A stretch of DNA of 32,000 nucleotides from Dehalococcoidia bacterium (GCA_965263155.1 OZ253586.1:2499171-2531170), one strand, 5' to 3'; positions 7,224 to 32,000 are shown, numbered from the stretch's first letter. Notes: a model not told the origin generated them from the letters alone. Numbers and translations are program-made.

Positions 7224-7299
7224 GGGGCTGTAGCTCAGCTGGGAGAGCGCTTCAATGGCATTGAAGAGGTAGGGGGTTCGAGTCCCCCCAGCTCCACCA
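7224..7299 (+). tRNA. tRNA-Ala (anticodon GGC), CCA encoded
   Basis: GGGGCTGTAGCTCAGCTGGGAGAGCGCTTCAATGGCATTGAAGAGGTAGGGGGTTCGAGTCCCCCCAGCTCCACCA. The cloverleaf folds by eye: acceptor GGGGCTG/CAGCTCC with the G3:U70 alanine identity pair, anticodon loop AT-GGC-AT, T arm GGGGG-TTCGAGT-CCCCC. Confidence 0.95.
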
Positions 7300-7786
7300 A
7301 ACTGGGGCGAGTTGCGGTCGTCATCTGATATACTTCCGACTAGTAGGAGTATACCCAACGCCATGCCGGTATGCTCCGCACCAACTCAGTTGGAGTGTAG
7401 CGACATGTCGCTTCAGGCCATCTACTAGTAATTCTGATCGTCCTTCTTGGCTCGCTGGTTGCCGCCCGCCAGGGAACCTCGACGCAGGAGGCCCGAGATG
7501 GTCACGACGTGTTTCACTGAATGATTAGCGCCTTCCAGGACCCTGATATAATGCAGCAGGTGCACGATATACACCACGAAGTTCATTCCATTTTCGAGGC
7601 CGAAATCGCCAAGCTCAGCGGTCTCCAGAAGGTTTCTTCAACTGGAGGGAAAATGGACAGCGAGTTTGATGGCCAGGACCGGATGGCCCTGCGGGCTGCG
7701 TGGAAGTTGCAAGGGATACTGGCTCTTCGCCACCGCGGACGGGTACATCATCTCCATCCAATAATCACTATTTTGAAAGGGGGTTC

Positions 7787-8815
7787 GTGCAACTCCGCAA
7801 ACTATCCAAGGGGCTGAAGGCCTCGTACTATGGGTCGGAGGTCGCCAGTCGCGTGCAACACTTCAATGGATGGAGCGACAGAGCGCTTGCACGGGATGTC
7901 GGCGCGACAGGCTACGACCATACCGAAACCGTCAAGGAATACTACGACCTTTGCGGCGAGTTCATGTTGCTCTCCTGGGGCGAATCCCTGCACTTCGCGC
8001 CGCTATCGCCGCAGGAGAGCCTGGAGGACTCCAAGACCCGGCATCAGCGACTGATGATCGCCAAGCTGGAGTTGCGCGAGGGGATGAGGGTGGTCGATAT
8101 TGGTTGCGGGATCGGCGGGCCGATGCGGCGTGTCGTCCGGGACGCCGGTGTGAGGGTCGTAGGGGTCAACAGCAACGAAATCCAGATCGGCCATGCGAAA
8201 TCGTTGAACGCCGAGGCGGGGCTCGACCACATGGTCGGCTACGTTGCGTGCAGCTTCATGAACATGAGCGCCATCGCGGACGACACATTCGACCGCGGTT
8301 ACGCGATCGAATCGACGTGTCATGCGCCGGACAAGGCGGGCGCGTTCGCCGAGATTTACCGTGTGCTGAAACCCGGAGCCCTTTTCTGGGGGCAGGAAAT
8401 GTGCATGACGGACAAGTTCGATCCCAGTGACAATCGGCACCGGGCCATGAAGCAGCAACTGATGCGGGGCATCGCGCTCCAGGATATCGCAACGATGGGA
8501 GAGGTGAACCGGGCGGTCGAAACGGCGGGGTTTCAGATCATCGAGGGAATGGACCGGGCGGTGGAGGAGAACGGTCCGACCACGCCATGGTATCGGGCCA
8601 TAGAGACCCAGCAAAGAAGGCTGGCCACTGGCCTTCCGTTGGGCCGCAAGGCGCTCTTCGGGGCATCCAGGCTGGCCGAGGTGTTTGGGGTGTTCCCGAA
8701 GGGCTCGACGGGCGTCGTCAGGCTGCTGGACTTGGCGGCCAACGCCATTGTGGCGGGCGGCAGGGCCGGGATCTTCACGCCGTTGTACTGTTTCCTGGCT
8801 CGTAAACCTCTTTGA
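7787..8815 (+). CDS. Sterol 24-C-methyltransferase (ERG6/SMT1) family SAM-dependent methyltransferase
   Basis: Collinear by eye with yeast ERG6 over the whole length. Matches are WGESLHFAP (region I), VVDIGCGIGGP (SAM motif I, 8090-8122), YAIESTCHAP vs YAIEATCHAP (8300-8329), EIYRVLKPG, MTDKFDPSDNRHR vs MTDKYDENNPEHR, PWY, and the C-terminal AIVAGGRAGIFTPLYCFLARKP vs GLVAGGKSKLFTPMMLFVARKP. The ORF opens at 7700; I prefer the GTG at 7787, which lies 3 nt after GAAAGGGGG. Confidence 0.85.
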   Translation: MQLRKLSKGLKASYYGSEVASRVQHFNGWSDRALARDVGATGYDHTETVKEYYDLCGEFMLLSWGESLHFAPLSPQESLEDSKTRHQRLMIAKLELREGMRVVDIGCGIGGPMRRVVRDAGVRVVGVNSNEIQIGHAKSLNAEAGLDHMVGYVACSFMNMSAIADDTFDRGYAIESTCHAPDKAGAFAEIYRVLKPGALFWGQEMCMTDKFDPSDNRHRAMKQQLMRGIALQDIATMGEVNRAVETAGFQIIEGMDRAVEENGPTTPWYRAIETQQRRLATGLPLGRKALFGASRLAEVFGVFPKGSTGVVRLLDLAANAIVAGGRAGIFTPLYCFLARKPL

Positions 8816-14499: not shown

Positions 14500-15534
14500 T
14501 TATGGAATGGCGCCCACCTCCCGCAGCAGCGCAACCGTGCCCCGCAGGTCGCTTAAAGACCCAAGGTCGAGGTCAGGGGGGGCCAATGACGAAAGGGGAG
14601 GCAGCCCCGCATCGGGGGCTACGCCAAGTACAAGAGGATACTCTTTGGTGTTCTGGGAGAAGTAGGCTTGGGCCTTATCGGATAGTAGGAACTCCACGAA
14701 CTCCTCTGCCCCGCTTGAGTTATCGCTCCCCTCGATGATCCCAGCCCCAGCCACTAGCACCAGTGCTCCTGGGTCCCCTGCACCTAGGAAGTGGTTCCGC
14801 GCCCCGAAGCCTGTTCCCTCTTCTTCCAGGAACCGCTGCAAGTAATAGTGGTTCACGAACCCCACGTCCACCTCGCCTCTGGCCACGGCCTCGACAATGG
14901 AGGTGTTGTTGGGGTATTCCCGTGGCTCGTTGGCCCTGATACCCTCCAGCCAAGCCCGGGCTGCATCCTCGCCCCACTTGACGCGGAAGGCAGTGACAAA
15001 AGCCTGGAAGGAGCCATTCGTAGGGGCCCAGCCGACCCGGCCACGCCATTCAGGCTCAGTGAAGCCGAGTATGGAATTCGGCAAGCCGGTGTTGGGGTCA
15101 ACTGTCGAGGTGTTGTACACCACGGTGCGGGCACGACCCGATGTCCCTACCCAATGGCCCACGGGCGAGCGAAATGCCGGGTCCACGTTGTCCAAAAGGT
15201 CTTGTGGAAGTTCGGAGAACATCCTGGCGGCCGCCAGGATGCCCAAGGAGCCTGGGTCCTGAAGGAACACCACGTCGGCTGGCGTGTTTTTCCCTTCTTC
15301 AAGGACAGTGGCGGCGATGGAGGCACTGCCAGCGTACTTGACGCGCACATCCATGCCGCTCGCCTCCTTGAAGTCTTGCAGCAGGGGATTGACCAAGGTC
15401 TCGGACCGCCCGGAGTAGATGATGAGAGTGTCGTCACCACCCCCACAAGCGAGGGGGGCGATGATCACCGTTGCCAATATTGCGACGGCAATCAGCATTT
15501 GGGGATTGAGATTCTGCCAACGGGACCTTGTCAT
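14500..15534 (-). CDS. ABC transporter substrate-binding lipoprotein, Fe(3+)/FbpA-AfuA-like
   Basis: Lipoprotein signal ...IIAPLAC|GGGD. LIIYSGRSETLVNPLLQDFKEASGMDVRVKYAGSASIAATVLEEGKNTPADVVFLQDPGSL is typical of ferric-iron type SBPs. No permease or ATPase gene is adjacent. Confidence 0.8.
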   Translation of the reverse strand: MTRSRWQNLNPQMLIAVAILATVIIAPLACGGGDDTLIIYSGRSETLVNPLLQDFKEASGMDVRVKYAGSASIAATVLEEGKNTPADVVFLQDPGSLGILAAARMFSELPQDLLDNVDPAFRSPVGHWVGTSGRARTVVYNTSTVDPNTGLPNSILGFTEPEWRGRVGWAPTNGSFQAFVTAFRVKWGEDAARAWLEGIRANEPREYPNNTSIVEAVARGEVDVGFVNHYYLQRFLEEEGTGFGARNHFLGAGDPGALVLVAGAGIIEGSDNSSGAEEFVEFLLSDKAQAYFSQNTKEYPLVLGVAPDAGLPPLSSLAPPDLDLGSLSDLRGTVALLREVGAIP

Positions 15535-18607: not shown

Positions 18608-20044
18608 CTAAGTTGAAGGAGGCAGGACCCAAGGTTTGGAGCGGATGCCTCTGTCTATCGTGACAAGGTTGACTGTCGGGTCGATGAGGCGGGTTGCCGG
18701 GCGGCCGTTGAAGGCGACGTGGACATCGGCACGGACTTCGACGTCGCGATGGCCACGGTTCGTGAGGTCATCTCGGATGATGTGGGCCGTTGCCAGCACC
18801 AAGTCGGGCTGGTATGCCATGCGCTCGACCTGTGTTGGCGTCAGGTATTCTTCCGGGTAGATGAGGCGCTCCCCGTCGGTGGCAGAGCTTTTCATGCGGA
18901 AACGCACGAGTCCTGTCTTCTCCGTGACCAGCACCCTCCACGAGAAACGATAGCCCTCTTCCGTCCATTGCACGTCTCCAGCGTAAGCCAAGTGTCGCAG
19001 GGGCACGAGCACTTGTACTACGAAGAACAAGGCAGCGAGCACGAGCGCAACCCGGACAGGCCACGCTGGAGGACATCCGTGAGACCCCGCTCGTCCTAAG
19101 AGAGGGGGCTCGGGTGGCAGGTGATGCGGTCCACGCAACCGGCTAGCTACACGAGCGGGCCAGTCAGAATCAAAGAAGATGAGGGCCGCCCCAATCATTA
19201 TCCAGGGGAACATGCCAATGGCAGGGAACAGCAGTGCCGTTGCCATGTGGAACAGCACCAGCACGCCATAGGCATAGGGGCGTGACCTGCGCCACAACAG
19301 CCACCCCACGATTGTCAGGTCGAAGAGGGCCCCAGCCCAACTCATCGCGTATGCAACCCACTGCTCGCGGACAAACGCGCCGACCAGATGTACGTCAGCG
19401 CTGTTATATAACCATATAGTCAGAGGCTGGGCGTCAAACAACCAATCGGGGTTCAACTTGGCAAGGCCAGCAAAGACGTACATCAAGCCCAATTGCGCCT
19501 GCAGCACCCACAATGTTGCCCGGGGAACCACCGGAGGGTGCACGTCAGCTGGGGTCTTACGCGAATCCAACGAGGCCACTCGCGCCATGGGCAGGAACGC
19601 CATGATGAGGCTGAGCAGACTCACCAAGTAGTAGTGATTGAGGTAGGTCGTTTGGTCAATCAGCTCCAAGTAGGTGAACAGCAGGAAGAAGGCAATGATA
19701 GACCGCCGGTAGCGGTACCCCAGCGCTACACCAAGGCTGGCCAGCCCAAGGAGGGCGAAATGGACGTACATCCCCCAAACGGGCCAAGGCTGCACCCATC
19801 CGAACCCGGCATAGCTGAAATGGTAGGTGGGCTCGAGGTACACCTCTGAGATCCAACCGTTGGCCACGAACCGCACCACAGCGATAAAGCCAAGCAGGCC
19901 GAAGATGACGCGGAAAGCGGCCAGCGAGGCTGGCGACACCGGCTGGCGTCCAGCTTGGATAAGCCGGTCGAGTGGGCTAGAGACTGCTGTTGGGGCACGT
20001 TGTGCAGAGGCTATTCGTGCAGCGGAAAGGGACGGCACTACCAT
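18608..20044 (-). CDS. Vitamin K-dependent gamma-glutamyl carboxylase (VKGC)-like protein with N-terminal HTTM domain
   Basis: SLAAFRVIFGLLGFIAVVRF...YRRSIIAFFLLFTYLELIDQTTYLNHYYLVSLLSLIMAFLP is the HTTM domain. VFAGLAKLNPDW aligns with human GGCX FFAGLKKLDADW, so the catalytic-base Lys is conserved (codon 19457-19459). The C-terminal GYRFSWRVLVTEKTG...VHVAFNGRP...LIDPTVNL parallels the GGCX lumenal region GYSWDMMVHS...WVSINDR...IFDPRVDI. Confidence 0.85.
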   Translation of the reverse strand: MVVPSLSAARIASAQRAPTAVSSPLDRLIQAGRQPVSPASLAAFRVIFGLLGFIAVVRFVANGWISEVYLEPTYHFSYAGFGWVQPWPVWGMYVHFALLGLASLGVALGYRYRRSIIAFFLLFTYLELIDQTTYLNHYYLVSLLSLIMAFLPMARVASLDSRKTPADVHPPVVPRATLWVLQAQLGLMYVFAGLAKLNPDWLFDAQPLTIWLYNSADVHLVGAFVREQWVAYAMSWAGALFDLTIVGWLLWRRSRPYAYGVLVLFHMATALLFPAIGMFPWIMIGAALIFFDSDWPARVASRLRGPHHLPPEPPLLGRAGSHGCPPAWPVRVALVLAALFFVVQVLVPLRHLAYAGDVQWTEEGYRFSWRVLVTEKTGLVRFRMKSSATDGERLIYPEEYLTPTQVERMAYQPDLVLATAHIIRDDLTNRGHRDVEVRADVHVAFNGRPATRLIDPTVNLVTIDRGIRSKPWVLPPST

Positions 20045-20053
20045 GGAAGCCAG

Positions 20054-21139
20054 CTAACGCAGGCTGTCGCCGTCAGTGTCGGTGAACCCCACCGACACGC
20101 CGAGAAGGCTCACCAACTCCGTCGCCATGGTGCGCTGCAACTCCGCGAGCCTGTCGTAGGCCTCGATCACCTGACTTGGCCTCTCAGCTATGGCAACACG
20201 TAGCTGCCCTTCTACCGCGTCGAGGGCCCCTATGGCGTCGGCGAGTTGCTCCCGCAGGCGCTGGTCGGTATCTTCCGACAGCGGGCGTACCAAGGCCGAG
20301 ATGCCCAAACTGTCCGAGCCAGCTCCTTCGTAGATGCGCTGCACGCCCTGCAGTTCGTTGCGCAGGTCTGCCAAGCCGTTGTCGGCAGCGGTGCCGGGGA
20401 TGGCCGATGGGTCGGCCCCGCCATCCCGCAGCCCCAACGCCGACGCCAAACGCATGTCGACGATATCCCGAATCAGGAAGACCTGAGTCCGCACCACCTC
20501 GGCCACTCCTTCGCTGGCTAGTAGCGCTACCTCCGACCGACCGGTCAGGTAGTCACGGTACGGTGGCCCTCCGTCACCCTCGACCCACGCCGATAGAATC
20601 GCGTCGGCCTCCTGACTTGCGACGGATGTGAGCGCGGACAAGAAGGCGCATCTTGGCGAGGGACCCTGAAGAGAAGCAGTCGCTTCTTTGTCGAATAAGA
20701 CATACTCCATGGCCCCGAACCCTCTCTGATTGGAGGCAAGCGCCTCGCGGATGTCAGTGGCCGTTGGCGCACGTCCTTGGGCCAACAGTCCCTCAATGCC
20801 GTCAATGTCAGTAGGCGACCAGTCCAGCAGGCTGCGGGAACGCCTCTCCATCACCGGCCCAAACCACATCGCCCCCGATGCCATCCAAGATGCGCGGGCG
20901 GCGTGCCACGCTTGTCGGGCCGCCTCCACGGATACGTCGTCAGGATTCTGGCATACGGACTGTGTGGCCTCATCCAGCCGGGCTATATCTTCAGCAACGG
21001 CTTGGAAGGCGGGGACGGCGACCTCGTCGGCGAGGCTGATCAAGACGTCGGCGTCCGAAGGGCCTCTCGGTCCACAAGCAGCAGACAGCAGCGCCAACGC
21101 AGCCAGAATCGGGGCCAGCGACGCTAGGACGGGCCTCAT
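20054..21139 (-). CDS. Imelysin-like lipoprotein (paralogue lacking the His of GxHxxE)
   Basis: Signal LALLSAAC|G. ARQAWHAARASWMASGAMWFGPV is imelysin-like. The motif position reads GFGAMEYVLFD (Gly instead of His). The ATG lies 1 nt after the upstream stop. Confidence 0.8.
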   Translation of the reverse strand: MRPVLASLAPILAALALLSAACGPRGPSDADVLISLADEVAVPAFQAVAEDIARLDEATQSVCQNPDDVSVEAARQAWHAARASWMASGAMWFGPVMERRSRSLLDWSPTDIDGIEGLLAQGRAPTATDIREALASNQRGFGAMEYVLFDKEATASLQGPSPRCAFLSALTSVASQEADAILSAWVEGDGGPPYRDYLTGRSEVALLASEGVAEVVRTQVFLIRDIVDMRLASALGLRDGGADPSAIPGTAADNGLADLRNELQGVQRIYEGAGSDSLGISALVRPLSEDTDQRLREQLADAIGALDAVEGQLRVAIAERPSQVIEAYDRLAELQRTMATELVSLLGVSVGFTDTDGDSLR

Positions 21140-21140
21140 G

Positions 21141-22559
21141 CTACAGCGACTCCAGGAATCTCAAGAGAGCCTCGCGCTTCTCGGCGGTAAGACCCATGAA
21201 GCGTTGGCGAGAGCCCTCGGCCTCGCCGCCGTGCCACAGAATGGCTTCTTCAAGGCTGCGAGCTCGTCCGTCATGCAGAAACATGGTGTGGCCGTTGACC
21301 GTTTCAACAAGGCCTATGCCCCACAGAGGCGGGGTGCGCCACTCTGTGCCCGAAGCTTGGCCGTCGGGCCGATGGTCCGCCAAGCTGGGACCCATGTCGT
21401 GCAGCAGCAGGTCGGTATAGGGGAAAATCGCCTGGTCCCTCAAGGGGGTCAGCGGGTGGGTATCTCCGGTCTCGTGCCTAGTAGTGTGGCACAGGGAGCA
21501 TTGAGACTGCACGAACAGGCGGGCGCCCTGTTGCACCGTCTTGTCTTCAGGGTCACGCATCGCCGGTACCGCCAAGGTCTGCACGTAGACGGTTACCTTG
21601 TCCAGCCTGCTGTCGGGTATTTCCGGCGCGCCCCCGTTGCGGGCTTGCCGGCACTCCTCTTGGCTGGACGGGCAATTCTCGTTCGGGAACAGGCTGGAGG
21701 TGATACCGATGTCTCCCAGAAAGGCTCCAGCCGACTGCTGCTCGACAGTAGGCTGATTTGCCTTCCACCCGAAGCGTCCGAGGGCCAACTCTCCCTTCCT
21801 GATGTCCCAGACGTAGTTGGGGCGACCGGATATACCGTCTCCGTTGGCGTCGTCGGGGTCGGCTTGGGCTAGAATGCTTGCTTCGGGAATGGCTTCCAGC
21901 AGCCCCATGCCGATGGTGGCGGGAGCGATACGCGGCGAGACCTGCACCTGCGAGTGCACCGGGCCGAAGGCTAGGTCGCCGATGCTGTAGGTAGGCTGCC
22001 TCAGGCTATATTCCGTGCCGTCGGGGTACTTGCCGGGTAATTCTTGGTAGCTGATAACAATGCGCCCTTCTACGGGCACACCCAAGACCGCGCGGTCCTG
22101 CAACTGCCCGCCGTAGCTAGGCTCGTCGATGGGGCCATCAAGCCCAGGTATGCTGAGGCGGAGAAGCAGGCCCCTTTCCGAGTCGTCTGGTCCGTCTGGT
22201 GGCTTGCCTCTGCCGTCGTGGCCGTGGCACGAGGAGCAGGATACGGCGTTGTGAGTGGGACCCAACCCGTCCCTAGCCTTGGTGCTGGCAGGGGCTGTCA
22301 CCCAGTTCTGAGTAAAGAAGCTGTCGCCTACCTCGAATACCCGGCGCAGTTCATTGTCCAAGTTACGCGCCGATAGCTCAAAGGCGTTGCCGCTTCGTGA
22401 GAAAGCCGTGGTGTCTCCCCCCAAGCGCACATCGTAGACCGTGCGCAGATCGATGTTATCGCCTCCACCGCAAGCCACGATGGCTAACAACACAACCGCT
22501 GGCAGCAGCGATGCCAGCGGTTGTGTCCATGGCCTGACCGTAAGATTGGAACGACGCAT
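21141..22559 (-). CDS. DUF1111 di-haem cytochrome c oxidoreductase/peroxidase-like lipoprotein
   Basis: Signal LLAIVAC|GGGD. FEVGDSFFTQNWVTAPASTKARDGLGPTHNAVSCSSCHGHDGRG and QSQCSLCHTTRH supply two CxxCH haem-binding sites in the DUF1111 pattern. Confidence 0.85.
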   Translation of the reverse strand: MRRSNLTVRPWTQPLASLLPAVVLLAIVACGGGDNIDLRTVYDVRLGGDTTAFSRSGNAFELSARNLDNELRRVFEVGDSFFTQNWVTAPASTKARDGLGPTHNAVSCSSCHGHDGRGKPPDGPDDSERGLLLRLSIPGLDGPIDEPSYGGQLQDRAVLGVPVEGRIVISYQELPGKYPDGTEYSLRQPTYSIGDLAFGPVHSQVQVSPRIAPATIGMGLLEAIPEASILAQADPDDANGDGISGRPNYVWDIRKGELALGRFGWKANQPTVEQQSAGAFLGDIGITSSLFPNENCPSSQEECRQARNGGAPEIPDSRLDKVTVYVQTLAVPAMRDPEDKTVQQGARLFVQSQCSLCHTTRHETGDTHPLTPLRDQAIFPYTDLLLHDMGPSLADHRPDGQASGTEWRTPPLWGIGLVETVNGHTMFLHDGRARSLEEAILWHGGEAEGSRQRFMGLTAEKREALLRFLESL

Positions 22560-22565
22560 GTAACC

Positions 22566-23732
22566 TTAGCTGACGTTTATGGTGATACCCACCTTTTGGG
22601 CCGCGACCACGATGGTATCGGTCTGGTTCTCCAGCGCAACGATTGTGTCGAGGACGGCCCGGCGTCCAGGGTCGCCATCCGCGCGCCCCTGCTTTAGCAG
22701 GTCGTCAAAGGGGGTGGGGATAGACTTGGCTAGTGACACTGAGCGGTTGATCTCGGCCTCCAACAAAGCCGCCAACTCCTCGTCCTCGGAAGCAATCAGG
22801 TCTCGTATGCCGGGGCCGGAAACATCGCCGTAGTCGCCCGAATAAACCCTCTTCACTCCTAGTGCGTTGGCAATGATATCAGCGTTGGTGTTGTCGGAAA
22901 AGCAGGAGTGCTCGTCTTCTTGCGACCGTTCCTCGTAGGCGACGGTCATACGCTCACCAGCCAACTCACCTCGGCTCATCTCGCCGATGCCGGTAATTAT
23001 GTCGGTGATGGCGTCATCCGAATCCTTGCCTACGAATTGGGAGCGGTAGTTGCTCTGGCCGGGGGCCCAAGCTTCCACCATATCTCGCAGGTGCCCGATC
23101 AGGACGTCGGACGCGACGGCGAGGTAGGCGCTGCGACGGTCGGCGTTGGAGTTAGCGGTGTAGTCTTCTACAGGACGGTAACCTGGCCCGTCGGGGTTGA
23201 GGTCCTGCCCCCAGAGCAGGAATTCGATAGCATGCCATCCAGTGGAGACATTCTCCTCTGCGCCTTCTTCATTGATGGAGACCAGCAGACCGGCATCAAT
23301 GGTCGGGAACTGATCGGGATTGTTGATGACCCCAGCACTGGCGTTGCCTTCCACGTAATCGATGTAGGACTCGTCCAAGGGCCAAGCGTTGACAAGCCCT
23401 TCGGGACCGTCTTCCTCATTGTCGATAGGGCCGTTGTAGAAGCGGTATATCTCGGTGACTCCATAGTCGTCTCTAGCGTAGAGCCAAGCCCGCTTGGCGG
23501 CGTCGAGCCTCGGCTGCGACGGGGCAGCGAGGAAATTGTCTATCGCAGCGTCCAGAGTTGTGGCAGAGTTCAGGCTCCTGACGTAGGAGGCGTGGGCTCC
23601 GGCCGCGTAATTCTCGACGACTGACGCCTTGAGTTCGTCGCTTGCACCACCCCCGTCGCCTGAGCAAGCCGCCAAGGCTAGACCCGATATAAGGACCGAC
23701 AGGACCAGCAGACCAAGTGTTCTCTTCCTCAT
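22566..23732 (-). CDS. Imelysin (peptidase M75 / IrpA / EfeM-like) lipoprotein
   Basis: MRKRTLGLLVLSVLISGLALAAC|SGDGG lipoprotein signal. The GxHxxE signature TGWHAIEFLLWGQD is present. The ORF opens at 23765; I prefer the ATG at 23732 (AAGGAG lies 13 nt upstream), but either start is possible. Confidence 0.85.
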   Translation of the reverse strand: MRKRTLGLLVLSVLISGLALAACSGDGGGASDELKASVVENYAAGAHASYVRSLNSATTLDAAIDNFLAAPSQPRLDAAKRAWLYARDDYGVTEIYRFYNGPIDNEEDGPEGLVNAWPLDESYIDYVEGNASAGVINNPDQFPTIDAGLLVSINEEGAEENVSTGWHAIEFLLWGQDLNPDGPGYRPVEDYTANSNADRRSAYLAVASDVLIGHLRDMVEAWAPGQSNYRSQFVGKDSDDAITDIITGIGEMSRGELAGERMTVAYEERSQEDEHSCFSDNTNADIIANALGVKRVYSGDYGDVSGPGIRDLIASEDEELAALLEAEINRSVSLAKSIPTPFDDLLKQGRADGDPGRRAVLDTIVALENQTDTIVVAAQKVGITINVS

Positions 23733-23807: not shown

Positions 23808-23835
23808 TTCACAGATGGTGAGTCGATGCTATATT
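23808..23835 (+). promoter_or_regulatory. Candidate sigma-70-type promoter for the lipoprotein/giant-protease genes
   Basis: TTCACA (23808-23813), a 16-nt spacer, then TATATT (23830-23835), inside the AT-rich divergent region. On the opposite strand a perfect TTGACA (complement of 23849-23854) faces the imelysin operon. Confidence 0.3.
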
Positions 23836-23839
23836 CCTC

Positions 23840-23858
23840 GCAAATGATTGTCAATAGC
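23840..23858. promoter_or_regulatory. Fur-box-like site in the divergent control region
   Basis: GCAAATGATTGTCAATAGC matches the enterobacterial Fur consensus GATAATGATAATCATTATC at 13 of 19 positions by my count. It overlaps the minus-strand TTGACA and sits just downstream of the plus-strand -10 candidate. Confidence 0.25.
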
Positions 23859-24061: not shown

Positions 24062-24979
24062 ATGAGAAGGCACTTAACGCGGATAGCCATCAGTGCGAGC
24101 CTGGTCCTACTGCTGGCCCTCAGCTTGATCCTCACTGGCTGTGGCGGTTCCCGCGATGAGGTTGAGACCACAGATGTGACGTCCAGTACACCCACGAAGG
24201 TTTCCCCAGCCCAAACACCTACCTCCGAAAGTCTGGTGAACGAGGCCCCTACTGCGCCCATACCCGCATTTCCTCCATCCGAATCCTCTCCAGAGGCCTC
24301 ATATAGCCCGCAAGCGGCTTTCCCAGACGCGACACCCAGCCAAGCTGTCACCGTTCCCAGCGCCAAGGCTTCTGGGACGAGCGAAGAGCCAGTGTTGACG
24401 GAAAAGGCCCCCTTGGCTCAAATCGCAATTGTGCCCGCCTTCAACCCCCAAGACGAGCCTCCCGGTCAGGGCTTGGCGGCCCGTGACTCCGAGCCGAAGG
24501 GCATCCCCGACTCCAGGCAGCCCGTGCAGGGTACGCCCTACACTTGGCAGGACGGAGACAGGACCTTGAGTGTGCACCTGCAGGAGGACTTGGTCGTCGA
24601 AGGGGACGGCAGCAACTCAGCTGCAAACATTGTGCGAGCCCAGCCGGGAGGCAGTAGCATCGTGGCTAAGGGGGACGGCTACGTCCCCAGCAACGATGAC
24701 CTTCCGGTCTTTCGCTCCCCGTCGGGTTCGTTGATGACCTTGCCAGGTGGAGTCCTACTGGCCCTGAACGAACAATGGACTCAAGCGCAGACCAACTCAT
24801 TCTTTGCCGACAACGGCATAAAGATGGACCGAGTTTCGGAGTTGGGCTACATCACCAACGGTTTCTTCATTACAACAGACCCAGGGTTTCCCTCGCTGAA
24901 TCTGGCCAACGAGCTGGCGGCCTTTGATGGGGTGGAGGTTTCCAGCCCCAACTGGTGGAGTGAGGCAGTGACGCGGTGA
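24062..24979 (+). CDS. Lipoprotein with P/S/T/E-rich linker and a C-terminal propeptide-like (beta-alpha-beta-beta-alpha-beta) domain
   Basis: MRRHLTRIAISASLVLLLALSLILTGC|GGSRDE lipobox, with GAGGT upstream of the ATG at 24062. A low-complexity linker (about 110 aa) follows. The C-terminal part ends in ...NLANELAAFDGVEVSSPNWW. The TTG at 23897 that opens the ORF is rejected as the start. Confidence 0.75.
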   Translation: MRRHLTRIAISASLVLLLALSLILTGCGGSRDEVETTDVTSSTPTKVSPAQTPTSESLVNEAPTAPIPAFPPSESSPEASYSPQAAFPDATPSQAVTVPSAKASGTSEEPVLTEKAPLAQIAIVPAFNPQDEPPGQGLAARDSEPKGIPDSRQPVQGTPYTWQDGDRTLSVHLQEDLVVEGDGSNSAANIVRAQPGGSSIVAKGDGYVPSNDDLPVFRSPSGSLMTLPGGVLLALNEQWTQAQTNSFFADNGIKMDRVSELGYITNGFFITTDPGFPSLNLANELAAFDGVEVSSPNWWSEAVTR

Positions 24980-25039
24980 CGCGACGATGCCGGTCCATCC
25001 CATCTCACCGGAACTAAGCTTGCTTGACCGATTGACCCG

Positions 25040-28000
25040 ATGACCGGGGTACTGCGCTTGCCAAGAAAGCTTTTGTCCGCAGGCATCGTTTGGGCTCTAC
25101 TCTTGCTGTTGCTGGCCTCAGGTGACGCTCGGGCCCAGAGCGTGCTCGCAGCGCCCACCATCGATTCGGTCACTGCGGGCGACAGCCTGCTTACCGTTGC
25201 TTGGACGGCCCCTACGGGCGAGTCGGGCATCATCGCCTACGACTTGCGTTACATCCAGACCTCCGCTGCGGACAAAGCCGACGACAAGTGGAGCATATCG
25301 CAGGACGTTTGGGCCACGGGTGCCGGGGATCTACAGTACCGCATCCTCCCATTGGAAAACGTTGGCTACGATGTGCAGGTGCGAGCCATAAGGGGAAGCA
25401 CCGACGGCATGTGGTCGCCTACCTTCATTGGCACGCCTACTGATCATGGAGACAGCCGTGGAGGAGCCACAGAGCTGGCCCTGAACGCGTCAGTCGTTGG
25501 CTACATCGACTCAACCAGCGATGACGACTACTTCAGCATCACGCTGTCGGAGGAGTCCGGCGTCTTCATCTATACCACCAGCTACATCACCGGGTTTCTT
25601 GCGACGACCGGGGAACTCCAGAACAGCGTCGGTACGACGATCAAGTCCGACGACAACGACTCCCTGTTCAGGCAGCACGGGCAGCAACTCTTTCTATGGG
25701 ACACGCTATCCGCTGGGACCTACTTCGTCAAAGTCGAAGCCTCTGAGACGGGGTATTACACCCTGCACACGCAGACCGTCCCCGATGGGAGCAGTAAGGA
25801 TGAGGCGGTCGATGTGAGCCTCAACGGCTTTGCCAACGGGATCTTGGACCCAGCGGCAAGCGATAAGGACTGGTTTAAGGTCGAGATCTCCCAGACCACG
25901 GACTTGATGCTCCGGGTGACCCGCGCCAATTCAGGAGTAGATACCGAAGGGACGTTATTTGACAGCGACGAAAAGGAGATCGCCGTCCACGATGACAGCT
26001 TCCTTGAAGGTGATTTGCGCTGGCAGTTCATCATCCGCGAGAAGCTGGACGCCGGGGTGTATTACCTCAAGGTCAGGAGTTCCCCCGGAGGGTCCTATCG
26101 CAGTTGTGACGAAGATGCGAAGTGCTCCGAGGAGATCTCCAAGAGCGCCGCGACTGACCCCGGACCCTACATGATGCACGCCGAGGCCGTGACGGCTCCC
26201 GGCAGTTCCACCGGCTCGGCCCGTGCCCTCACTTTAGGCCAGAACGAGGTGGCGGGCGGAAGAATAGACCGGGCCAACGATACGGACTATTTCAAGATAA
26301 CCGTGAGTGAGACTACCCATGTCCGTGTGCGGGTCGCAAGTGCGACTCTCGAGACCGACGTGGCGCTGCTAGACACCAGTCGCCGCGAGGTTGGCACGCT
26401 CCAGTCAGAAAGCGATTACGTTCCTGGGAGACTCGGAGGCCTTCTCTACGGCACCCTCAAGACGGGTACCAGCTACATCAATGTGACTGCCGAAGACCGC
26501 AAGGAGACGGGGGCGTATGCCATAGTGGTGTACGAAGACACGCTGTATGCGGGATTCTTGGACCGCTGCAGCGCCATCTCAGCCAACTACAGCGACCCCC
26601 TTTATGGGTGTCAATGGCACCTGAACAACACGGGCCAGAACAGCGGGGCTGGCGCGGGCACCGAGGGCGAGGATATCAATGTGGAGGAAGTGTGGGACGC
26701 TGGCAACCTTGGCGAGGGCATCAATGTCGCAATAGTCGACAACGGCTTGTACTACGAGCACGAGGACCTGACTGCCAATGTCAATCGCTCACGCAACTAT
26801 GACTACACTGGGGAGGGCGACGTATTCGAGCGCTACCTCACCCATGGTACCCGTATAGCCGGCATCATTGCTGCCCGTGACAACAGTATCGGCGTCCGTG
26901 GAGTGGCGCCGCGGGCCACGGTGTACGCCTACAACTGGATTCGCAATCCGACTTTCGCCAACCTCGGCGATGCGATGACCCGCAATATGTCCGACACTGG
27001 TGTGTCCAACAACAGCTGGGGTCCCCTAGCGTCTCCCAGACCGGCCCGTGTCCCCAGCCTCTGGGAGCTAGCGGTGGATGCTGGCGTCTCCAAGGGCTTT
27101 GGTGGCAAGGGGGTCTTCTACGTCTTCTCGGCGGGCAACGGGGGGCGAAGCAGTACGGGGGACTACTCGAACCTCAACGAGTACGCCAACTACTACGCCG
27201 TGACCGCGGCCTGCGCAACCGACAACTTGGGAGAGAGGGCCGCCTTTTCTGAGGAAGGTCCCAATCTTTGGGTCTGTGCTCCATCAGAGGGCGACGGGCG
27301 TCAAGGCATAACCACCACCCAGAACTACAACCGCTATGACGGGTCTACCGGGGGCACCTCATCGGCCGCTGCCATCGTGTCGGGTGTGGCTGCCTTGGTG
27401 CGCAAGGCTAATCCCAACCTTACTTGGCGGGACGTGAAGCTGGTCCTGGCAGGTTCCGCCCGCAAAAACGACTCCACTAATTCCGGCTGGGAGACGGGTG
27501 CCACTAAGTACGACTCTACCACCGACACTGACACCTATAACTACAACCACGAATACGGCTTTGGTGTAGTCTACGCCAAGGCGGCGGTGGACTTGGCCGA
27601 AGGCTGGACCTTGCTGCCTCCCATGAGGGAGGTCACCGGAGGTACCGTCGACGACCTTGACCTGAGCATTCCCAACACCAACTCGGCCGTCCCTAGCGCT
27701 GTGACCGTCGGGGCTGGAGTCGACTTCATTGAGTTCGTGGAGGTCAACGGTGTTTTCGACCACCTGTCCTTCCGAGACCTGAGGGTGGAGTTGGTGTCAC
27801 CTTCCAACAAGACATCCGTGCTGAGTGTACCCTTCACCTCTGACGAGAATTATCCCTTGACCACCAGTTTCCGTTTCGGCTCCGCACGTCATTTGGGAGA
27901 GAGCGCGACAGGCACTTGGACTCTACGCCTTACCGATACAGAATCTGGCAGTGAAGGCTCCCTCCTCTCCTGGAGCCTTACCGTTTATGGCCATTCAGAC

Positions 28001-31000
28001 CCCTTGGCAGCCCCGACCGCCACCTCGGTCACTCCCGGCAGTAGTTCCCTCACTGTCGCTTGGGACGTCCCAGACGGAGCAACGGGCATCACCGCCTATG
28101 ACGTGCGCCACATCGCCAGCGATGCCACAGACAAGGCCGATGACCAGTGGACCGTGATCTATGACGCATGGGCATCCGGGTCCACCAGCCTGCAGTACAC
28201 CATCACCAGCCTCACTGATGGGACTGGCTACGACGTACAGGTGCGGGCGGTGAAGGCGGGCGTGGATGGTGATTGGTCGGATACGGTCGTGGGTACATCG
28301 GGAACCTCGGCGGCCACGGTACCGACCATCGGCTCTGTGCGCCCCGACGACAAGGCCATCCTCGTGTCCTGGTCTGCTCCCACCAGTACCACGTACACCG
28401 TCACGGCCTACGATGTACGCTATATCCGCAACGATGCCACCAGCAGGACGGATAGCGATTGGAAGGTGGAGGACGACGCGTGGACCACCGAAGACGGTGA
28501 CCTGTGGTACGCCATCACTGAATTGGACAACGGGGTGATGTATGACGTGCAGGTGCGGGCCGTCACAACCAGTGACGGAGATTGGTCACCGCCTTTTAGC
28601 ACGAGCCCCTCTGACTATGGCGGAAGCTTGGACACGGCAACAACTCTTGTGCTGGAAACTACTTCTTCAGGGCGGATTGCCCCACTTGGCCACAACCGTT
28701 ACTGGGGTGAGCTGGAAGATGGAGGCGACACCGACTATTTCAAGTTCGAGCTCACTTCCACACAGGTTGGAACCGGTGCCGGGTTCTGGCTGTACACCAC
28801 AGGCGACTTGGACACTGTGGGCAACCTGCTCGATAGCAACGGTCTGCTTATCGAGGCCAATGACGATGGCAGGGTGTTGCCGAACCCAAGGGACTTCTTC
28901 ATGTGGCGCACCATGACAGCAGGTACGTACTACCTCAAGGTCAGCGGCTACGAAGGCGCCCAAGGGCCCTACACTCTCAGGCTGCGAACATTCACCGACA
29001 CTAGTAGTCGGAGCAATGCGGTCGAACTACCCTTGGACGGCTCAGCAAGAGGCATGCTGGACCCTGAGGGTGACGAGGACTACTTCAAGCTAGTAGTGCC
29101 CTCGGACGACACCGAGGTGGTTCTTCGTAGCAGCGGCTTTTTCGATTCGGTAGGCGAGTTGCAGAACAACTCCGGCCGCTCCTTGGAGGTGAACGACGAT
29201 GGTTACCTTACAGGTGGTCTGGTTCGCCAGTTTCTAATACGCACGGAACTCGACACCGGCACCTACTACCTCAAAGTCAGAGGTTTCGACAGCATCATCG
29301 ACGAGAACATCGGCCCCTTCAGCGTCTACGCCACAACGGTGACGAAGCCCGGCAGCGACACCGCTAATGCCCAGGCCCTGACCCTCGGCCGTCCCGCTGG
29401 AGGCAGCATAGACCCAGCGGGAGACGTGCACTACTTCAGCATTACCCTCTCGGATCAAACCTATGTGTACATACGGGCGGTAAGCGAAGACCTTGACGTG
29501 GACGGCGCACTGCTGGACAGCAGCAACAACGCCGTCACCCCGGCCTCGGACCAAGACGGCAGTGGTAACGTAGGCTTCACCATCCGACACCGCCTCGATG
29601 CTGGCACCTACTACATCAAGGTCACTGCCGATAGTGGCGCCGACACCGGGAGTTACACCATCATGGTTATCGAAGAGACCGTCTTCAGTAGGCTGGTCGA
29701 CGAATGCACCGAGATCGACAGAAATGCCGGCATCAATGACCCTCTATACGGCTGCCAGTGGCACCTCAACAACGATGGGCAGTTCCGCGGCGGGGCTAGG
29801 CAGGACATTAACGTAGAGGACGCGTGGTCCAGCAGCTACAACGGGACAGGAATCAACGTAGCTGTGGTGGACGATGGGATGCACTACGCCCACGAGGACC
29901 TGATGCCCAACGCAAACACAGCTCTGAACCACGACTACACTGGCAACAGTGAGATATACGATCCCCTCGAAACCCACGGCACGGCCGTGGCCGGCATCAT
30001 TGCGGCCCGGGACAACGACAAAGGAATGCGTGGGGTAGCCCCTAGGGCCACCATCTACGGCTACAACCTTCTCATTAGCAACGAGGACAAGGACGAAGGT
30101 GACGCCATGTCGCGGAACGCGAGTGTAACCGCGATCTCCAACAACAGTTGGGGCCCTGGGGACTCCGGAGCGCCAGAAGCCACGAACACTTTCTGGACTG
30201 CAGGGGTCCAAACAGGGATCACCGATGGCTTCGGGGGGAAAGGCACTTTCTATGTCTGGGCAGCTGGCAACGGAGGCCGCTGGGGCGACTATTCCGGCCT
30301 AGACGAATACGCCAACTACTACGCCGTGACAGCGGCTTGCGCCGTCAACCACCTCGATGTCCGGAGCAGCTACTCCGAGCCGGGCTCCAACCTGTGGGTT
30401 TGCGCCCCCTCAAATAACGGGGGTCTATCTAGTCTGCCCGGCATTGCCACTACGGACAACGGGAACCGTTACAGGGATGACTTCGGCGGCACCAGCGCCG
30501 CTGCTCCCATCGTTTCAGGCGTAGCTGCCTTGGTGCGTGACGCCAACGAAAACCTGACATGGCGTGATGTGAAGCTGATCCTAGCTGCGTCCGCCCGCAA
30601 GAACGACCCAACTGATTCTGGATGGGAGGAAGGCGCCCCGAAGTATGGCTCCACCACGGACCGCTACAACTTCAACCACGAGTACGGCTTTGGCATGGTG
30701 GACGCCAAAGCAGCAGTAGACTTGTCAAACGGCTGGGCCAATGTCCCAACCTTTCGGAATATGAGCGCCGAGTCCGGCAGAATTAACCTCACCATCCCTG
30801 ACGCCACATCTACCCTGCCGGGCGCTAGGGTGACCAGCACACTGACGCTCCAGCCATTCGTGGGGTTCGTCGAGTACATCGAAGTGAAGGCCCACTTTGC
30901 CCACACCTCTTTCCGGGACCTGGACGTGGAACTGGTTTCCCCCACGGGCGCAGTCTCCAAGCTGGTCCCCCACTACGAAGCCCCACCCGAAGGCCGACGG

Positions 31001-32000
31001 ATGTGGGATTCCGAATTTCGCTTCGGCTCGGCCCGGCACCTCGGCGAGGACGCAGCCGGTGTCTGGGCACTTCGGATTGCCGACCACATCGCGTCGGATC
31101 GGGGCACCCTCAAGTCGTGGGAAATCACTGCCTACGGCCATGGCTACGTGCCCACTAGGCCCGATATCGATGAAGTGACCCCTGGCCAAGGCACGCTGAC
31201 CGTCACCTGGAAAGAGCCGGACGACGCGGGAAGCTCCTCGGTTACGCGGTACGACCTCAGGCACATTCGCAGCGATACCACCGACAAGTCGGACGACCAA
31301 TGGACTGTCGTTGAAGACGTGGGCATCCCCGGAAGTGCCCTCAGCAACAACATTTCAGACCTCCAAGGTGGCGTGGACTACGATATTCAGTTGCGGGCGG
31401 TGAACAGCAGAGGCCCCGGCCCGTGGTCGGCCAGCTGGAAAACGCAATACGACATTGTGGCCCCCTTAAAGCCTTTCATAACTTCCATCACCCCAGGCGA
31501 CCGAGCGCTCGCCGTCACTTGGAGCGCGCCCACCGACACCGGTGGTGAGGATCCTACTTCCTACGACGTACGCCACATCGAGACGAGCGCCACCGACAAG
31601 ACTGACGACGAGTGGACTGTCGTCGGCAGAGCTTGGATCAGCGGCGACCTGCGATACACCATCACCGGTCTCACCAACGGCACGGAATACGATGTACAGG
31701 TGCGAGCTGTCAACTCAGGAGGCAATGGCACCCGGTCTGACACTATGACGGGCACGCCTGAGCAGGCCCACACGCCGGTCACCCTGTCGGTTGAACAGCC
31801 GACGGTCTCCGTCAGCGAAGATGGAGGGAGCGCCACAGTTACCGTGTTCCTCACGACAACTGTGGCCCACGCACCGCGCTCCGACTTCTCCGTAGATATC
31901 AGGGTGACAGTAACCGACCGCTACGAGACCCAGTCTACTGACTATGGGGACCCTTCGGAGTCGACCCTCAGCTTCGAGGCCACCGATTTCGCCCAGACCA
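25040..32000 (+). CDS. Giant secreted multidomain protein with two furin/kexin-type (S8B) proprotein-convertase units; 3' end outside the window
   Basis: In-frame TGA at 25025-25027, ATG at 25040, then no stop up to nt 32000 (2320 codons). It is absent from the supplied track because no stop closes it in the window. All listed ORFs in this span are in other frames or antisense. The Sec signal is MTGVLRLPRKLLSAGIVWALLLLLLASGDARA|QS. Domains are listed in the following features. Confidence 0.9.
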   Translation, partial: MTGVLRLPRKLLSAGIVWALLLLLLASGDARAQSVLAAPTIDSVTAGDSLLTVAWTAPTGESGIIAYDLRYIQTSAADKADDKWSISQDVWATGAGDLQYRILPLENVGYDVQVRAIRGSTDGMWSPTFIGTPTDHGDSRGGATELALNASVVGYIDSTSDDDYFSITLSEESGVFIYTTSYITGFLATTGELQNSVGTTIKSDDNDSLFRQHGQQLFLWDTLSAGTYFVKVEASETGYYTLHTQTVPDGSSKDEAVDVSLNGFANGILDPAASDKDWFKVEISQTTDLMLRVTRANSGVDTEGTLFDSDEKEIAVHDDSFLEGDLRWQFIIREKLDAGVYYLKVRSSPGGSYRSCDEDAKCSEEISKSAATDPGPYMMHAEAVTAPGSSTGSARALTLGQNEVAGGRIDRANDTDYFKITVSETTHVRVRVASATLETDVALLDTSRREVGTLQSESDYVPGRLGGLLYGTLKTGTSYINVTAEDRKETGAYAIVVYEDTLYAGFLDRCSAISANYSDPLYGCQWHLNNTGQNSGAGAGTEGEDINVEEVWDAGNLGEGINVAIVDNGLYYEHEDLTANVNRSRNYDYTGEGDVFERYLTHGTRIAGIIAARDNSIGVRGVAPRATVYAYNWIRNPTFANLGDAMTRNMSDTGVSNNSWGPLASPRPARVPSLWELAVDAGVSKGFGGKGVFYVFSAGNGGRSSTGDYSNLNEYANYYAVTAACATDNLGERAAFSEEGPNLWVCAPSEGDGRQGITTTQNYNRYDGSTGGTSSAAAIVSGVAALVRKANPNLTWRDVKLVLAGSARKNDSTNSGWETGATKYDSTTDTDTYNYNHEYGFGVVYAKAAVDLAEGWTLLPPMREVTGGTVDDLDLSIPNTNSAVPSAVTVGAGVDFIEFVEVNGVFDHLSFRDLRVELVSPSNKTSVLSVPFTSDENYPLTTSFRFGSARHLGESATGTWTLRLTDTESGSEGSLLSWSLTVYGHSDPLAAPTATSVTPGSSSLTVAWDVPDGATGITAYDVRHIASDATDKADDQWTVIYDAWASGSTSLQYTITSLTDGTGYDVQVRAVKAGVDGDWSDTVVGTSGTSAATVPTIGSVRPDDKAILVSWSAPTSTTYTVTAYDVRYIRNDATSRTDSDWKVEDDAWTTEDGDLWYAITELDNGVMYDVQVRAVTTSDGDWSPPFSTSPSDYGGSLDTATTLVLETTSSGRIAPLGHNRYWGELEDGGDTDYFKFELTSTQVGTGAGFWLYTTGDLDTVGNLLDSNGLLIEANDDGRVLPNPRDFFMWRTMTAGTYYLKVSGYEGAQGPYTLRLRTFTDTSSRSNAVELPLDGSARGMLDPEGDEDYFKLVVPSDDTEVVLRSSGFFDSVGELQNNSGRSLEVNDDGYLTGGLVRQFLIRTELDTGTYYLKVRGFDSIIDENIGPFSVYATTVTKPGSDTANAQALTLGRPAGGSIDPAGDVHYFSITLSDQTYVYIRAVSEDLDVDGALLDSSNNAVTPASDQDGSGNVGFTIRHRLDAGTYYIKVTADSGADTGSYTIMVIEETVFSRLVDECTEIDRNAGINDPLYGCQWHLNNDGQFRGGARQDINVEDAWSSSYNGTGINVAVVDDGMHYAHEDLMPNANTALNHDYTGNSEIYDPLETHGTAVAGIIAARDNDKGMRGVAPRATIYGYNLLISNEDKDEGDAMSRNASVTAISNNSWGPGDSGAPEATNTFWTAGVQTGITDGFGGKGTFYVWAAGNGGRWGDYSGLDEYANYYAVTAACAVNHLDVRSSYSEPGSNLWVCAPSNNGGLSSLPGIATTDNGNRYRDDFGGTSAAAPIVSGVAALVRDANENLTWRDVKLILAASARKNDPTDSGWEEGAPKYGSTTDRYNFNHEYGFGMVDAKAAVDLSNGWANVPTFRNMSAESGRINLTIPDATSTLPGARVTSTLTLQPFVGFVEYIEVKAHFAHTSFRDLDVELVSPTGAVSKLVPHYEAPPEGRRMWDSEFRFGSARHLGEDAAGVWALRIADHIASDRGTLKSWEITAYGHGYVPTRPDIDEVTPGQGTLTVTWKEPDDAGSSSVTRYDLRHIRSDTTDKSDDQWTVVEDVGIPGSALSNNISDLQGGVDYDIQLRAVNSRGPGPWSASWKTQYDIVAPLKPFITSITPGDRALAVTWSAPTDTGGEDPTSYDVRHIETSATDKTDDEWTVVGRAWISGDLRYTITGLTNGTEYDVQVRAVNSGGNGTRSDTMTGTPEQAHTPVTLSVEQPTVSVSEDGGSATVTVFLTTTVAHAPRSDFSVDIRVTVTDRYETQSTDYGDPSESTLSFEATDFAQT
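25148..25440 (+). other. FN3 domain 1 (approximate bounds)
   Basis: APTIDSVTAGDSLLTVAWTAP...IIAYDLRYI...W...LQYRILPLENVGYDVQVRAIRGSTDGMWSP. Confidence 0.7.
25441..26540 (+). other. Three PPC (bacterial pre-peptidase C-terminal)-like domains, set 1 (approximate bounds)
   Basis: Each unit has the pattern G.I....D.DYF.I.. (DDDYFSITL, DKDWFKVEI, DTDYFKITV), then D..G.L.D, then GTY(F/Y/I).V, then Y.(L/I).V. Confidence 0.65.
26594..27607 (+). other. S8B (kexin/furin-like) catalytic domain 1
   Basis: DPLYGCQWHLNN. Asp in VAIVDNG (codon 26738), His in THGTRIAGIIAA (26843), NNSWGP, SAGNGG...EYANYYAVTAACA, Ser in GGTSSAAAIVSG (27359). Confidence 0.85.
27608..27994 (+). other. Proprotein-convertase P domain 1
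   Basis: FIEFVEVNGVFDHLSFRDLRVELVSPSNKTSVL...FRFGSARHLGESATGTWTLRLTDTESGSEGSLLSWSLTVYGH parallels the furin P domain (...DLAIHLVSP.G..S.L...GEW.L.I.......G.L..F.L.LYG). Confidence 0.8.
28001..28608 (+). other. FN3 domains 2 and 3 (approximate bounds)
   Basis: SLTVAWDVP...ITAYDVRHIASDATDKADDQW...GYDVQVRAV and ILVSWSAP...VTAYDVRYIRNDATSRTDSDW...MYDVQVRAV. Confidence 0.7.
28609..29680 (+). other. Three PPC-like domains, set 2 (approximate bounds)
   Basis: DTDYFKFEL...GTYYLKVSGY...YTLRL; DEDYFKLVV...GTYYLKVRGF; DVHYFSITL...GTYYIKVTAD...YTIMV. Confidence 0.65.
29738..30736 (+). other. S8B (kexin/furin-like) catalytic domain 2
   Basis: DPLYGCQWHLNN. Asp in VAVVDDG (29870), His in THGTAVAGIIAA (29975), NNSWGP, AAGNGG...EYANYYAVTAACA, Ser in GGTSAAAPIVSG (30494). 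Confidence 0.85.
30737..31141 (+). other. Proprotein-convertase P domain 2
   Basis: FVEYIEVKAHFAHTSFRDLDVELVSPTGAVSKL...FRFGSARHLGEDAAGVWALRIADHIASDRGTLKSWEITAYGH. Confidence 0.8.
31142..31750 (+). other. FN3 domains 4 and 5 (approximate bounds)
   Basis: TLTVTWKEP...VTRYDLRHIRSDTTDKSDDQW...DYDIQLRAV and ALAVTWSAP...PTSYDVRHIETSATDKTDDEW...EYDVQVRAV. Confidence 0.7.
31771..32000 (+). other. Start of a Calx-beta-like domain (truncated by the window end)
   Basis: VTLSVEQPTVSVSEDGGSATVTVFLT......TQSTDYGDPSESTLSFEATDFAQT resembles the Calx-beta pattern (V.V.E..G.A.V.V....... ...DY......L.F..G). Confidence 0.45.

Follow-up and report, generated by a model that had tools for sequence, protein, structure and literature searches.

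The 32,000-nucleotide (nt) stretch of DNA analysed here, termed the window, comes from a Dehalococcoidia bacterium (GCA_965263155.1 OZ253586.1:2499171-2531170) and carries a compact cluster of four minus-strand genes. Three encode lipoproteins of an imelysin-type module, and the fourth encodes a predicted membrane enzyme that resembles human GGCX, the vitamin-K-dependent carboxylase. The main finding is that a distinct clade of GGCX-like enzymes with an HTTM domain is functionally tied to the imelysin-type module. The individual gene families and a three-gene imelysin operon were already known; since the papers found do not discuss the pairing, an imelysin-type iron module with a GGCX-like membrane component is regarded here as new. 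No paper that combines HTTM and imelysin was found in the searchable literature, and the only relevant item found there for imelysin and carboxylase together is an expression table from Riemerella anatipestifer (PMC5609570).

A first-pass annotation of this DNA had described four genes with intergenic gaps of 6, 1 and 9 nt, and the open reading frames (ORFs) and their junctions (TAA-ggttac-ATG, TAG-c-ATG and TAG-ctggcttcc-ATG) agree with it. The genes, in order of reading, are:

22566..23732, minus strand, gene 1: canonical imelysin lipoprotein, Peptidase_M75
21141..22559, minus strand, gene 2: di-haem DHOR/DUF1111 lipoprotein
20054..21139, minus strand, gene 3: IPPA-type imelysin-like lipoprotein
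18608..20044, minus strand, gene 4: predicted GGCX-like polytopic membrane enzyme of 478 amino acids, with HTTM and VKGC lumenal domains

The first three proteins have signal peptides that end in a lipobox-like cysteine (LAAC, IVAC and SAAC), and the fourth has HTTM and VKGC_lumenal_dom matches, in line with the earlier description of three lipoproteins and a polytopic membrane protein. The gene 1 start at 23732 yields the signal MRKRTLGLLVLSVLISGLALAAC and is more probable than another in-frame ATG, at 23765. The public gene call for the HTTM gene (P0001, 443 amino acids) places its start at V36. Homologue alignments begin at residue 3-5, which supports the 478-amino-acid form and with it the 9-nt gap.

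A genome scan with one genome per species gave 80 loci, all from Dehalococcoidia or Chloroflexota metagenome-assembled genomes (MAGs), and partner genes were located in them by tblastn with the window proteins. The three partner genes adjoin the HTTM gene in 77/80 loci. The layout is co-directional, as in the window, in 31 loci and convergent in 46, where the HTTM and IPPA-type genes meet tail to tail, in most cases with ~10-40 nt between them. In the convergent loci the HTTM gene is therefore not co-transcribed with its partners, and the conserved trait is adjacency, not an operon; of the operon proposed earlier, the gene association is conserved and the common transcription is not. In the convergent layout the genes on the upstream side of HTTM vary, and no second conserved partner was found among them. 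The HTTM gene abuts the IPPA-type gene in both orientations, which resembles an ancient single-gene inversion that kept adjacency. The closest relatives of the window organism have 67-69% identity in the enzyme and up to 88% in the imelysin.

The association extends to other phyla. An identical M75-DHOR-M75-HTTM order, with overlapping genes, is present in Polyangium aurulentum, a Haliangium and a Nannocystaceae MAG, which are the three Myxococcota looked up (3/3). The order in a Bacteroidota MAG is DUF4856-M75-HTTM-TonB-dependent receptor. A metagenome scan centred on this Bacteroidota protein gave 80 Bacteroidota-like loci. With loci of sufficient sequence as denominators, the gene immediately upstream is an M75 gene of the same orientation in 64/65, a TonB receptor is directly downstream in 65/66, and DUF4856 upstream in 49/51. 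The HTTM-imelysin association, first drawn from the window alone, thus occurs in three lineages. Two variations among the Bacteroidota-like loci may be mentioned. In one locus (L154:11830-13155) the TonB receptor is followed by another HTTM gene, a divergent one with 34% identity to the first, and a canonical imelysin gene is divergently upstream in L136, L154 and L133, as is a DHOR gene in L136 and L154.

Perhaps the adjacency is only an inherited gene order with no functional meaning. All 80 genome-scan loci belong to one class, in which synteny could be inertia, and one locus (L032) has the HTTM gene with none of the three partners, the sole such case. This explanation is very improbable, as adjacency survives inversion within the Dehalococcoidia, the pairing recurs in Myxococcota and Bacteroidota amid different surrounding genes, adjacency tracks a residue signature of the enzyme, and the genes are co-regulated in Riemerella. 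In L032 (L032:5020-11389) the HTTM gene is beside homologues of a window lipoprotein gene and a giant gene described below, as if the M75-DHOR-M75 block had been deleted.

The residue signature sets the linked enzymes apart. The linked set comprises the enzymes from the window, Polyangium, Haliangium, Nannocystaceae, the Bacteroidota MAG and all 80 metagenome loci. Linked enzymes have 47-57% identity across phyla, compared with 35-42% between the window protein and the unlinked homologues looked up. The linked enzymes all have T, [YF] and V where human GGCX has N290, Y395 and M401 (T269, Y365 and V371 in the window protein), and four unlinked homologues have N, H and M. A Thermomicrobiales homologue, on a contig that ends just past the gene, also has N/H/M. 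Identity and signature together show that the imelysin association belongs to one orthologous clade, which, judged from the aligned residues, differs near the predicted quinone pocket. No imelysin gene was found near the HTTM homologues of Anabaena, a Verrucomicrobiota MAG, a Thermodesulfobacteriota MAG and one further genome, and a hidden Markov model built from 141 partners found no hidden imelysin beside unlinked HTTM genes. The Thermodesulfobacteriota MAG has two tandem genes for 505-amino-acid HTTM plus VKGC_lumenal proteins, with no imelysin nearby (L084:6639-9822, L085:2635-5818).

Of major interest also is the identity of the constant partner. In all three lineages the gene immediately beside the HTTM gene encodes an M75 protein of the IPPA type. 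DHOR is present in only 4/80 Bacteroidota-like loci; the constant partner is therefore the IPPA-type imelysin-like lipoprotein, and the coupling to a haem protein put forward in the first-pass annotation loses ground. Among 141 HTTM-adjacent partners the lipobox Cys is invariant (141/141), the Gly of GxxxxE is found in 140/141, and the position of the His is taken by Gly or Pro. A D-x-D-G-D motif is also invariant in the 141. It forms the exact C-terminus in Myxococcota and Bacteroidota-like proteins and is three residues from the end in Dehalococcoidia (seen in window gene 3 and in the partners of L082 and L088-L170).

The window copies of the three lipoproteins are typical of their families. 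Gene 1 encodes a canonical ICMP/IrpA-type imelysin, with the M75 domain (Pfam Peptidase_M75, 1.6e-68, 231.8 bits), GxHxxE and a lipoprotein signal; it also has a sub-threshold NCBIfam match to imelysin LruB (2.7e-46). The gene 2 product is a di-haem oxidoreductase of the DHOR family (formerly DUF1111; 6e-103, 345 bits, profile positions 7-499 of 499) with two CxxCH motifs. Gene 3 encodes an IPPA-family protein: it has an M75 domain (9.5e-36, 124 bits), a lipobox-like signal (SAAC), GxxxxE without His, and an end-to-end phmmer match over query residues 31-358 to the IPPA structure 3pf0 (7.6e-9). The motifs are located as follows.

23664-23675, minus strand: gene 1 lipobox LAAC
23223-23240, minus strand: gene 1 motif GWHAIE (GxHxxE)
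22890-22913, minus strand: gene 1 motif EHSCFSDN
22470-22481, minus strand: gene 2 lipobox-like IVAC
22224-22238, minus strand: gene 2 haem-binding CxxCH motif, CSSCH
21486-21500, minus strand: gene 2 haem-binding CxxCH motif, CSLCH
20705-20722, minus strand: gene 3 motif GFGAME (GxxxxE, without His)
20066-20080, minus strand: gene 3 motif DTDGD, three residues (SLR) from the C-terminus

These motifs, together with the Pfam and 3pf0 matches, mean that genes 1-3 reproduce the imelysin/DUF1111/IPPA-like order of PA4370-PA4372. Fur-regulated imelysin operons have been described in Pseudomonas aeruginosa (PA4370-PA4373) and in Vibrio cholerae (VC1264 onward) (Xu et al., 2011; PMC3143127). The window cluster shares with these the first three genes, their order, exported lipoproteins and the link to iron, and it differs from the PA4370-PA4373 type in having a GGCX-like membrane enzyme as the fourth gene. 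The fourth gene of the proteobacterial operon presumably encodes a DUF1513 protein.

The fourth window protein was correctly said to be more than a bare HTTM domain. It matches Pfam HTTM (7.2e-78, 262 bits) and VKGC_lumenal_dom (2.3e-43, 148 bits), both above the curated cut-off of 27.7 bits, and most GGCX active-site residues are kept. In a phmmer search of PDB sequences, human GGCX is the sole match (2e-33); residues 26-463 align to human ~49-491 of 758 with an identity of 24-25%. An AlphaFold2 model made with 97 homologues has a mean predicted local distance difference test score (pLDDT) of 88.9 and a predicted TM-score (pTM) of 0.89. Foldseek with this model finds only GGCX chains in the PDB (E ~1e-22) and no transporter, with TM-scores of 0.78-0.81 normalized on the query and 0.55-0.59 on GGCX. 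In comparison with human GGCX (PDB 9bvk, 9l21 and 9wfc, among others), the HTTM domain and the first part of the lumenal domain are common to both. The window protein is a counterpart of the first two thirds of GGCX only; the last ~270 residues of the human protein, which include the propeptide-binding part, are missing from it. Since the alignment ends at ~491 of 758 and the TM-score on GGCX is 0.55-0.59, the earlier label of a full-length homologue is wrong. The model places R10, R16, R27 and R33 in the N-terminal region and a beta-rich C-terminal domain after the last helix. The family is large and native to bacteria (4551 representatives at 50% clustering, E <= 1e-3). Sequence and model thus assign the protein to the GGCX/vitamin-K-dependent carboxylase family, with a predicted activity. 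By analogy with GGCX, its active site probably faces the outside of the cytoplasmic membrane, i.e. the side of the lipoproteins.

Active-site residues were mapped by phmmer alignment to the catalytic residues defined in recent GGCX structural papers; the roles of N159/H160 in the glutamate-carboxylate pocket are from PMC12647623.

K196, human K218, codon 19457-19459, minus strand: quinol-deprotonating catalytic base, within GLAKLNPDW; equivalent invariant in 97/97 homologues and 80/80 metagenome homologues
W201, human W223: invariant in 97/97 homologues
D242, human D263: Asp in 95/97 homologues
N136/H137, human N159/H160, codons 19634..19639, minus strand: glutamate-carboxylate pocket; both invariant in 97 homologues
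F279, human F299: CO2-stacking; invariant in 97 homologues
Y365, human Y395: glutamate pocket; Y or F across the wider linked clade
R408, human R436: glutamate pocket; kept in the window protein
A195, human K217, which couples epoxidation to substrate: substituted; Ala in 95/97 homologues
T269, human N290, a quinol hydroxyl contact, codon 19238..19240, minus strand: substituted
V371, human M401: substituted

All residues checked are kept apart from the positions of K217, N290 and M401, now Ala, Thr and Val. The catalytic lysine is where the first-pass annotation had placed it, although the human motif given there as GLKKLDADW is actually GVKKLDADW. Equivalents of human K218, W223, D263, N159, H160, F299, Y395 and R436 are retained, and those of K217 and N290 are not.

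Could the membrane protein be a non-catalytic dock or a permease to which the imelysin-like protein delivers iron, in the way that EfeO delivers it to EfeU? It is the sole integral membrane protein of the cluster, and an M75 gene beside a gene for a membrane protein mirrors the EfeO/EfeU adjacency. The invariance of active-site residues across hundreds of sequences argues for catalysis, and the predicted fold matches GGCX only and no transporter; this alternative is improbable. In iron uptake by EfeUOB, too, an M75 protein acts together with a membrane protein and a peroxidase. No Ftr1/EfeU permease was found in the four-gene cluster or among the other window ORFs scanned, and an EfeO-type N-terminal cupredoxin-like domain was not seen in the two imelysin proteins, in which Pfam detected M75 only. 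EfeB is a DyP-type peroxidase. This conflicts with its description as a di-haem DUF1111-family peroxidase by Xu et al. (PMC3143127), and no difference between EfeB and the window protein is claimed here.

A link of the cluster to iron, which had been taken from the literature on imelysin, gains support from neighbouring iron genes in related loci and from published expression data. Neighbour genes were counted only for clearly separate families and then confirmed with Pfam, as all-against-all clustering of raw ORFs from the 80 loci fused spurious overlapping GC-rich ORFs into one giant cluster. Within 10 kb of Dehalococcoidia clusters are genes for a FecCD permease (22 loci), a Peripla_BP_2 binding protein (19), ferritin (9), an ABM monooxygenase (9) and a DtxR-type iron-dependent repressor (8). 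The window has one further candidate, 3 kb from the cluster, whose homologues (67-73% identical) recur in 11 related loci, at no more than 10 kb from the cluster:

14500..15534, minus strand: lipoprotein solute-binding protein of the SBP_bac_6/8/11 type (Fe3+-like)

The strongest evidence for the iron link is the expression table from Riemerella anatipestifer. There, expression of genes RAYM_09779-09794 goes up under iron restriction, with RNA-seq ratios of 2.1-3.1, and in a fur mutant with iron, with ratios of 1.4-1.9 (PMC5609570, Table 4). In this cluster a gene for an imelysin lipoprotein adjoins one annotated as 'vitamin K-dependent gamma-carboxylase', a pairing on which the paper does not comment (PMC5609570). 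The layout is that of the Bacteroidota-like loci; where the window has DHOR and the canonical imelysin, the Riemerella cluster has a hypothetical protein and a TonB-dependent receptor. The four-gene module is probably iron-responsive. Upstream of gene 1 in the window are two candidate signals:

23826..23854, minus strand: promoter-like TTGACA-17-TAGCAT, ~95 nt upstream of gene 1; 10/12 matches to consensus, a consensus match only
23840..23858, minus strand: tentative Fur-like box GCTATTGACAATCATTTGC, overlapping the -35 hexamer; 14/19 matches to GATAATGATAATCATTATC

A Fur-like score of at least 14 occurred in 3/1380 random 200-nt segments from related loci; the region is AT-rich and the match weak. 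IdeR/DtxR-like palindromes such as TTTAGTTAGGCTAGACTAA and TTAGTAGAGACTAAC are present between the promoter-like site and the imelysin start in L001, L041, L044, L057, L059 and L076. As these upstream regions are AT-rich and the loci are related, both kinds of operator match are a lead only. A simple scan found no promoter-like site between the four genes and three terminator-like matches within them, below the 3.5 expected from shuffles.

What might the enzyme do in such a module? The products of genes 1-3 would be held by lipid anchors at the outer side of the cytoplasmic membrane and form an extracytoplasmic imelysin-type module. The gene 4 enzyme would oxidize menaquinol with O2 on that face to make a strong base, which could drive carboxylation or another modification of an acidic residue of the tethered partner lipoprotein or its ligand. 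The lipid anchor of the partner would take the place of propeptide docking; we know of no propeptide-bearing substrates in bacteria. The modification would then create or tune a metal-binding site for iron capture, and the most concrete candidate targets are the D-x-D-G-D tail and the GxxxxE acid of the partner. The simplest reading of residues and gene context, to which we give about an even chance, is a modification of the partner lipoprotein or its ligand, most likely a carboxylation, for which the enzyme would draw on menaquinol and O2. The narrower proposal, that linked HTTM enzymes are menaquinone-dependent protein carboxylases with the adjacent IPPA-type lipoproteins as substrates, is tentative and put forward as possible rather than probable.

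Several points weigh against modification of the partner. The Ala at the K217 position is a caveat for a carboxylase and fits an uncoupled epoxidase equally; R408, equivalent to R436, is not conserved beyond the Dehalococcoidia. IPPA-type proteins such as Psychrobacter IPPA have this C-terminal motif too, in operons that are not known to contain an HTTM gene; D-x-D-G-D is thus a family trait and not specific to HTTM partners. Iron control in the window organism is suggested only by the weak Fur-like match (14/19). In addition, the Leptospira orthologue reportedly epoxidized vitamin K with no detectable carboxylation.

These points lead to the possibility that the enzyme is a menaquinol epoxidase or oxygen activator uncoupled from carboxylation, which provides the haem and imelysin proteins with a reactive oxygen species or with redox equivalents, so that Fe2+ and Fe3+ can be interconverted, or consumes O2 locally. 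Together with the reported behaviour of the Leptospira enzyme, the Ala in 95/97 homologues speaks for it: in a preprint, the lack of K217 in homologues from Leptospira is connected with a loss of substrate-activated epoxidation. DHOR, as a putative peroxidase, would need an oxidant, although its presence in 4/80 Bacteroidota-like loci means that the haem protein is not a constant partner. Giant-virus homologues, which form VKGC-like epoxidase-desaturase modules, have been interpreted as epoxidases coupled to another enzyme (PMC13486548); however, the viral proteins are without the 374-418 region (PMC13486548), which the window protein keeps. It should also be pointed out that N136, H137 and F279 are invariant, though a pure epoxidase would not need them. 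An uncoupled epoxidase appears unlikely.

In the giant-virus modules an HTTM enzyme that keeps K218 goes with a specific partner, a desaturase, and in DUF5819-HTTM complexes an enzyme that also keeps K218 has DUF5819 as its partner (bioRxiv 10.64898/2026.08.19.745780). The Leptospira orthologue is like the window protein in that K217 is not conserved, and its role in protein carboxylation has been doubted. It differs in its supposed origin, by acquisition from an animal host; the window protein is one of a large family that is native to bacteria. Leptospira proteins were absent from the homologue search returns, and a literature search on a LruB imelysin-carboxylase link gave nothing. Papers on GGCX structures have pointed out that bacteria, Kordia and Chondromyces among them, keep the catalytic residues, and do not consider gene context.

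Leptospira was taken in the first-pass annotation to provide the only bacterial orthologue studied, which overlooks MloH. This GGCX-family protein of Streptomyces has been shown to carboxylate an aspartyl substrate in malonomycin biosynthesis (Law et al., 2018), and the GGCX family can therefore carboxylate in bacteria. MloH is encoded in a polyketide synthase (PKS)-non-ribosomal peptide synthetase (NRPS) antibiotic cluster and acts on a biosynthetic intermediate, and the window cluster has no such genes. MloH raises the question of whether the window enzyme modifies a metallophore-like metabolite, which the imelysin-like protein would bind and the TonB receptor import. Bacterial members of the family can, as MloH shows, act on Glu or Asp chemistry that is not protein-bound; a TonB-dependent receptor gene is the regular downstream neighbour in Bacteroidota-like loci (65/66), and siderophore-type ATP-binding cassette transporter genes are near the Dehalococcoidia cluster. 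The neighbour with strict conservation encodes a lipoprotein rather than an enzyme of biosynthesis, and no NRPS, PKS or siderophore synthetase genes were seen in the clusters examined; a small-molecule substrate thus has only a small chance of being correct. Modification of the partner lipoprotein or its ligand is the reading preferred here.

The window has other features that lie outside the cluster. Divergent from the imelysin genes, a lipoprotein-like gene is found just upstream of a giant ORF, and both are conserved beside the cluster in L001 and L032 only. Further along the window are a methyltransferase gene, and a helicase gene followed by a tRNA gene, the last two unrelated to the imelysin cluster.

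24062..24979, plus strand: 305-amino-acid lipoprotein-like gene, no Pfam match
25028..32000, plus strand: giant ORF of at least 2324 amino acids that runs off the window end, with a signal-peptide-like start
7700..8815, plus strand: methyltransferase, Sterol_MT_C (6.5e-15) with a CMAS/Methyltransf_11 core
2714..7108, minus strand: Lhr-type helicase of 1464 amino acids with a weak AlkZ-like glycosylase region
7224..7299, plus strand: tRNA-Ala(GGC)

The methyltransferase is unusual for Dehalococcoidia, has a 68%-identical copy in L008, and may be of relevance to sterol methylation by bacteria that live with sponges. The labels of several related MAGs hint at sponge metagenomes, which we take from the labels themselves.

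In the pairing described here two unsolved questions meet: the role of the thousands of bacterial GGCX homologues, and that of imelysin-like proteins in iron uptake. A pairing that is cross-phylum, clade-specific and iron-responsive names a candidate enzyme-substrate or enzyme-partner pair, and one that is directly testable in culturable hosts (Riemerella, Flavobacterium and Polyangium). If the enzyme does carboxylate its partner, these would be the first bacterial proteins with gamma-carboxy-Glu or beta-carboxy-Asp, whose malonate-like side chains would capture iron outside the cytoplasm. This would also explain why imelysin-like proteins made in heterologous hosts were not seen to bind metal. 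Vitamin-K-dependent protein modification would then extend from animals to bacteria, with an older use in metal capture.

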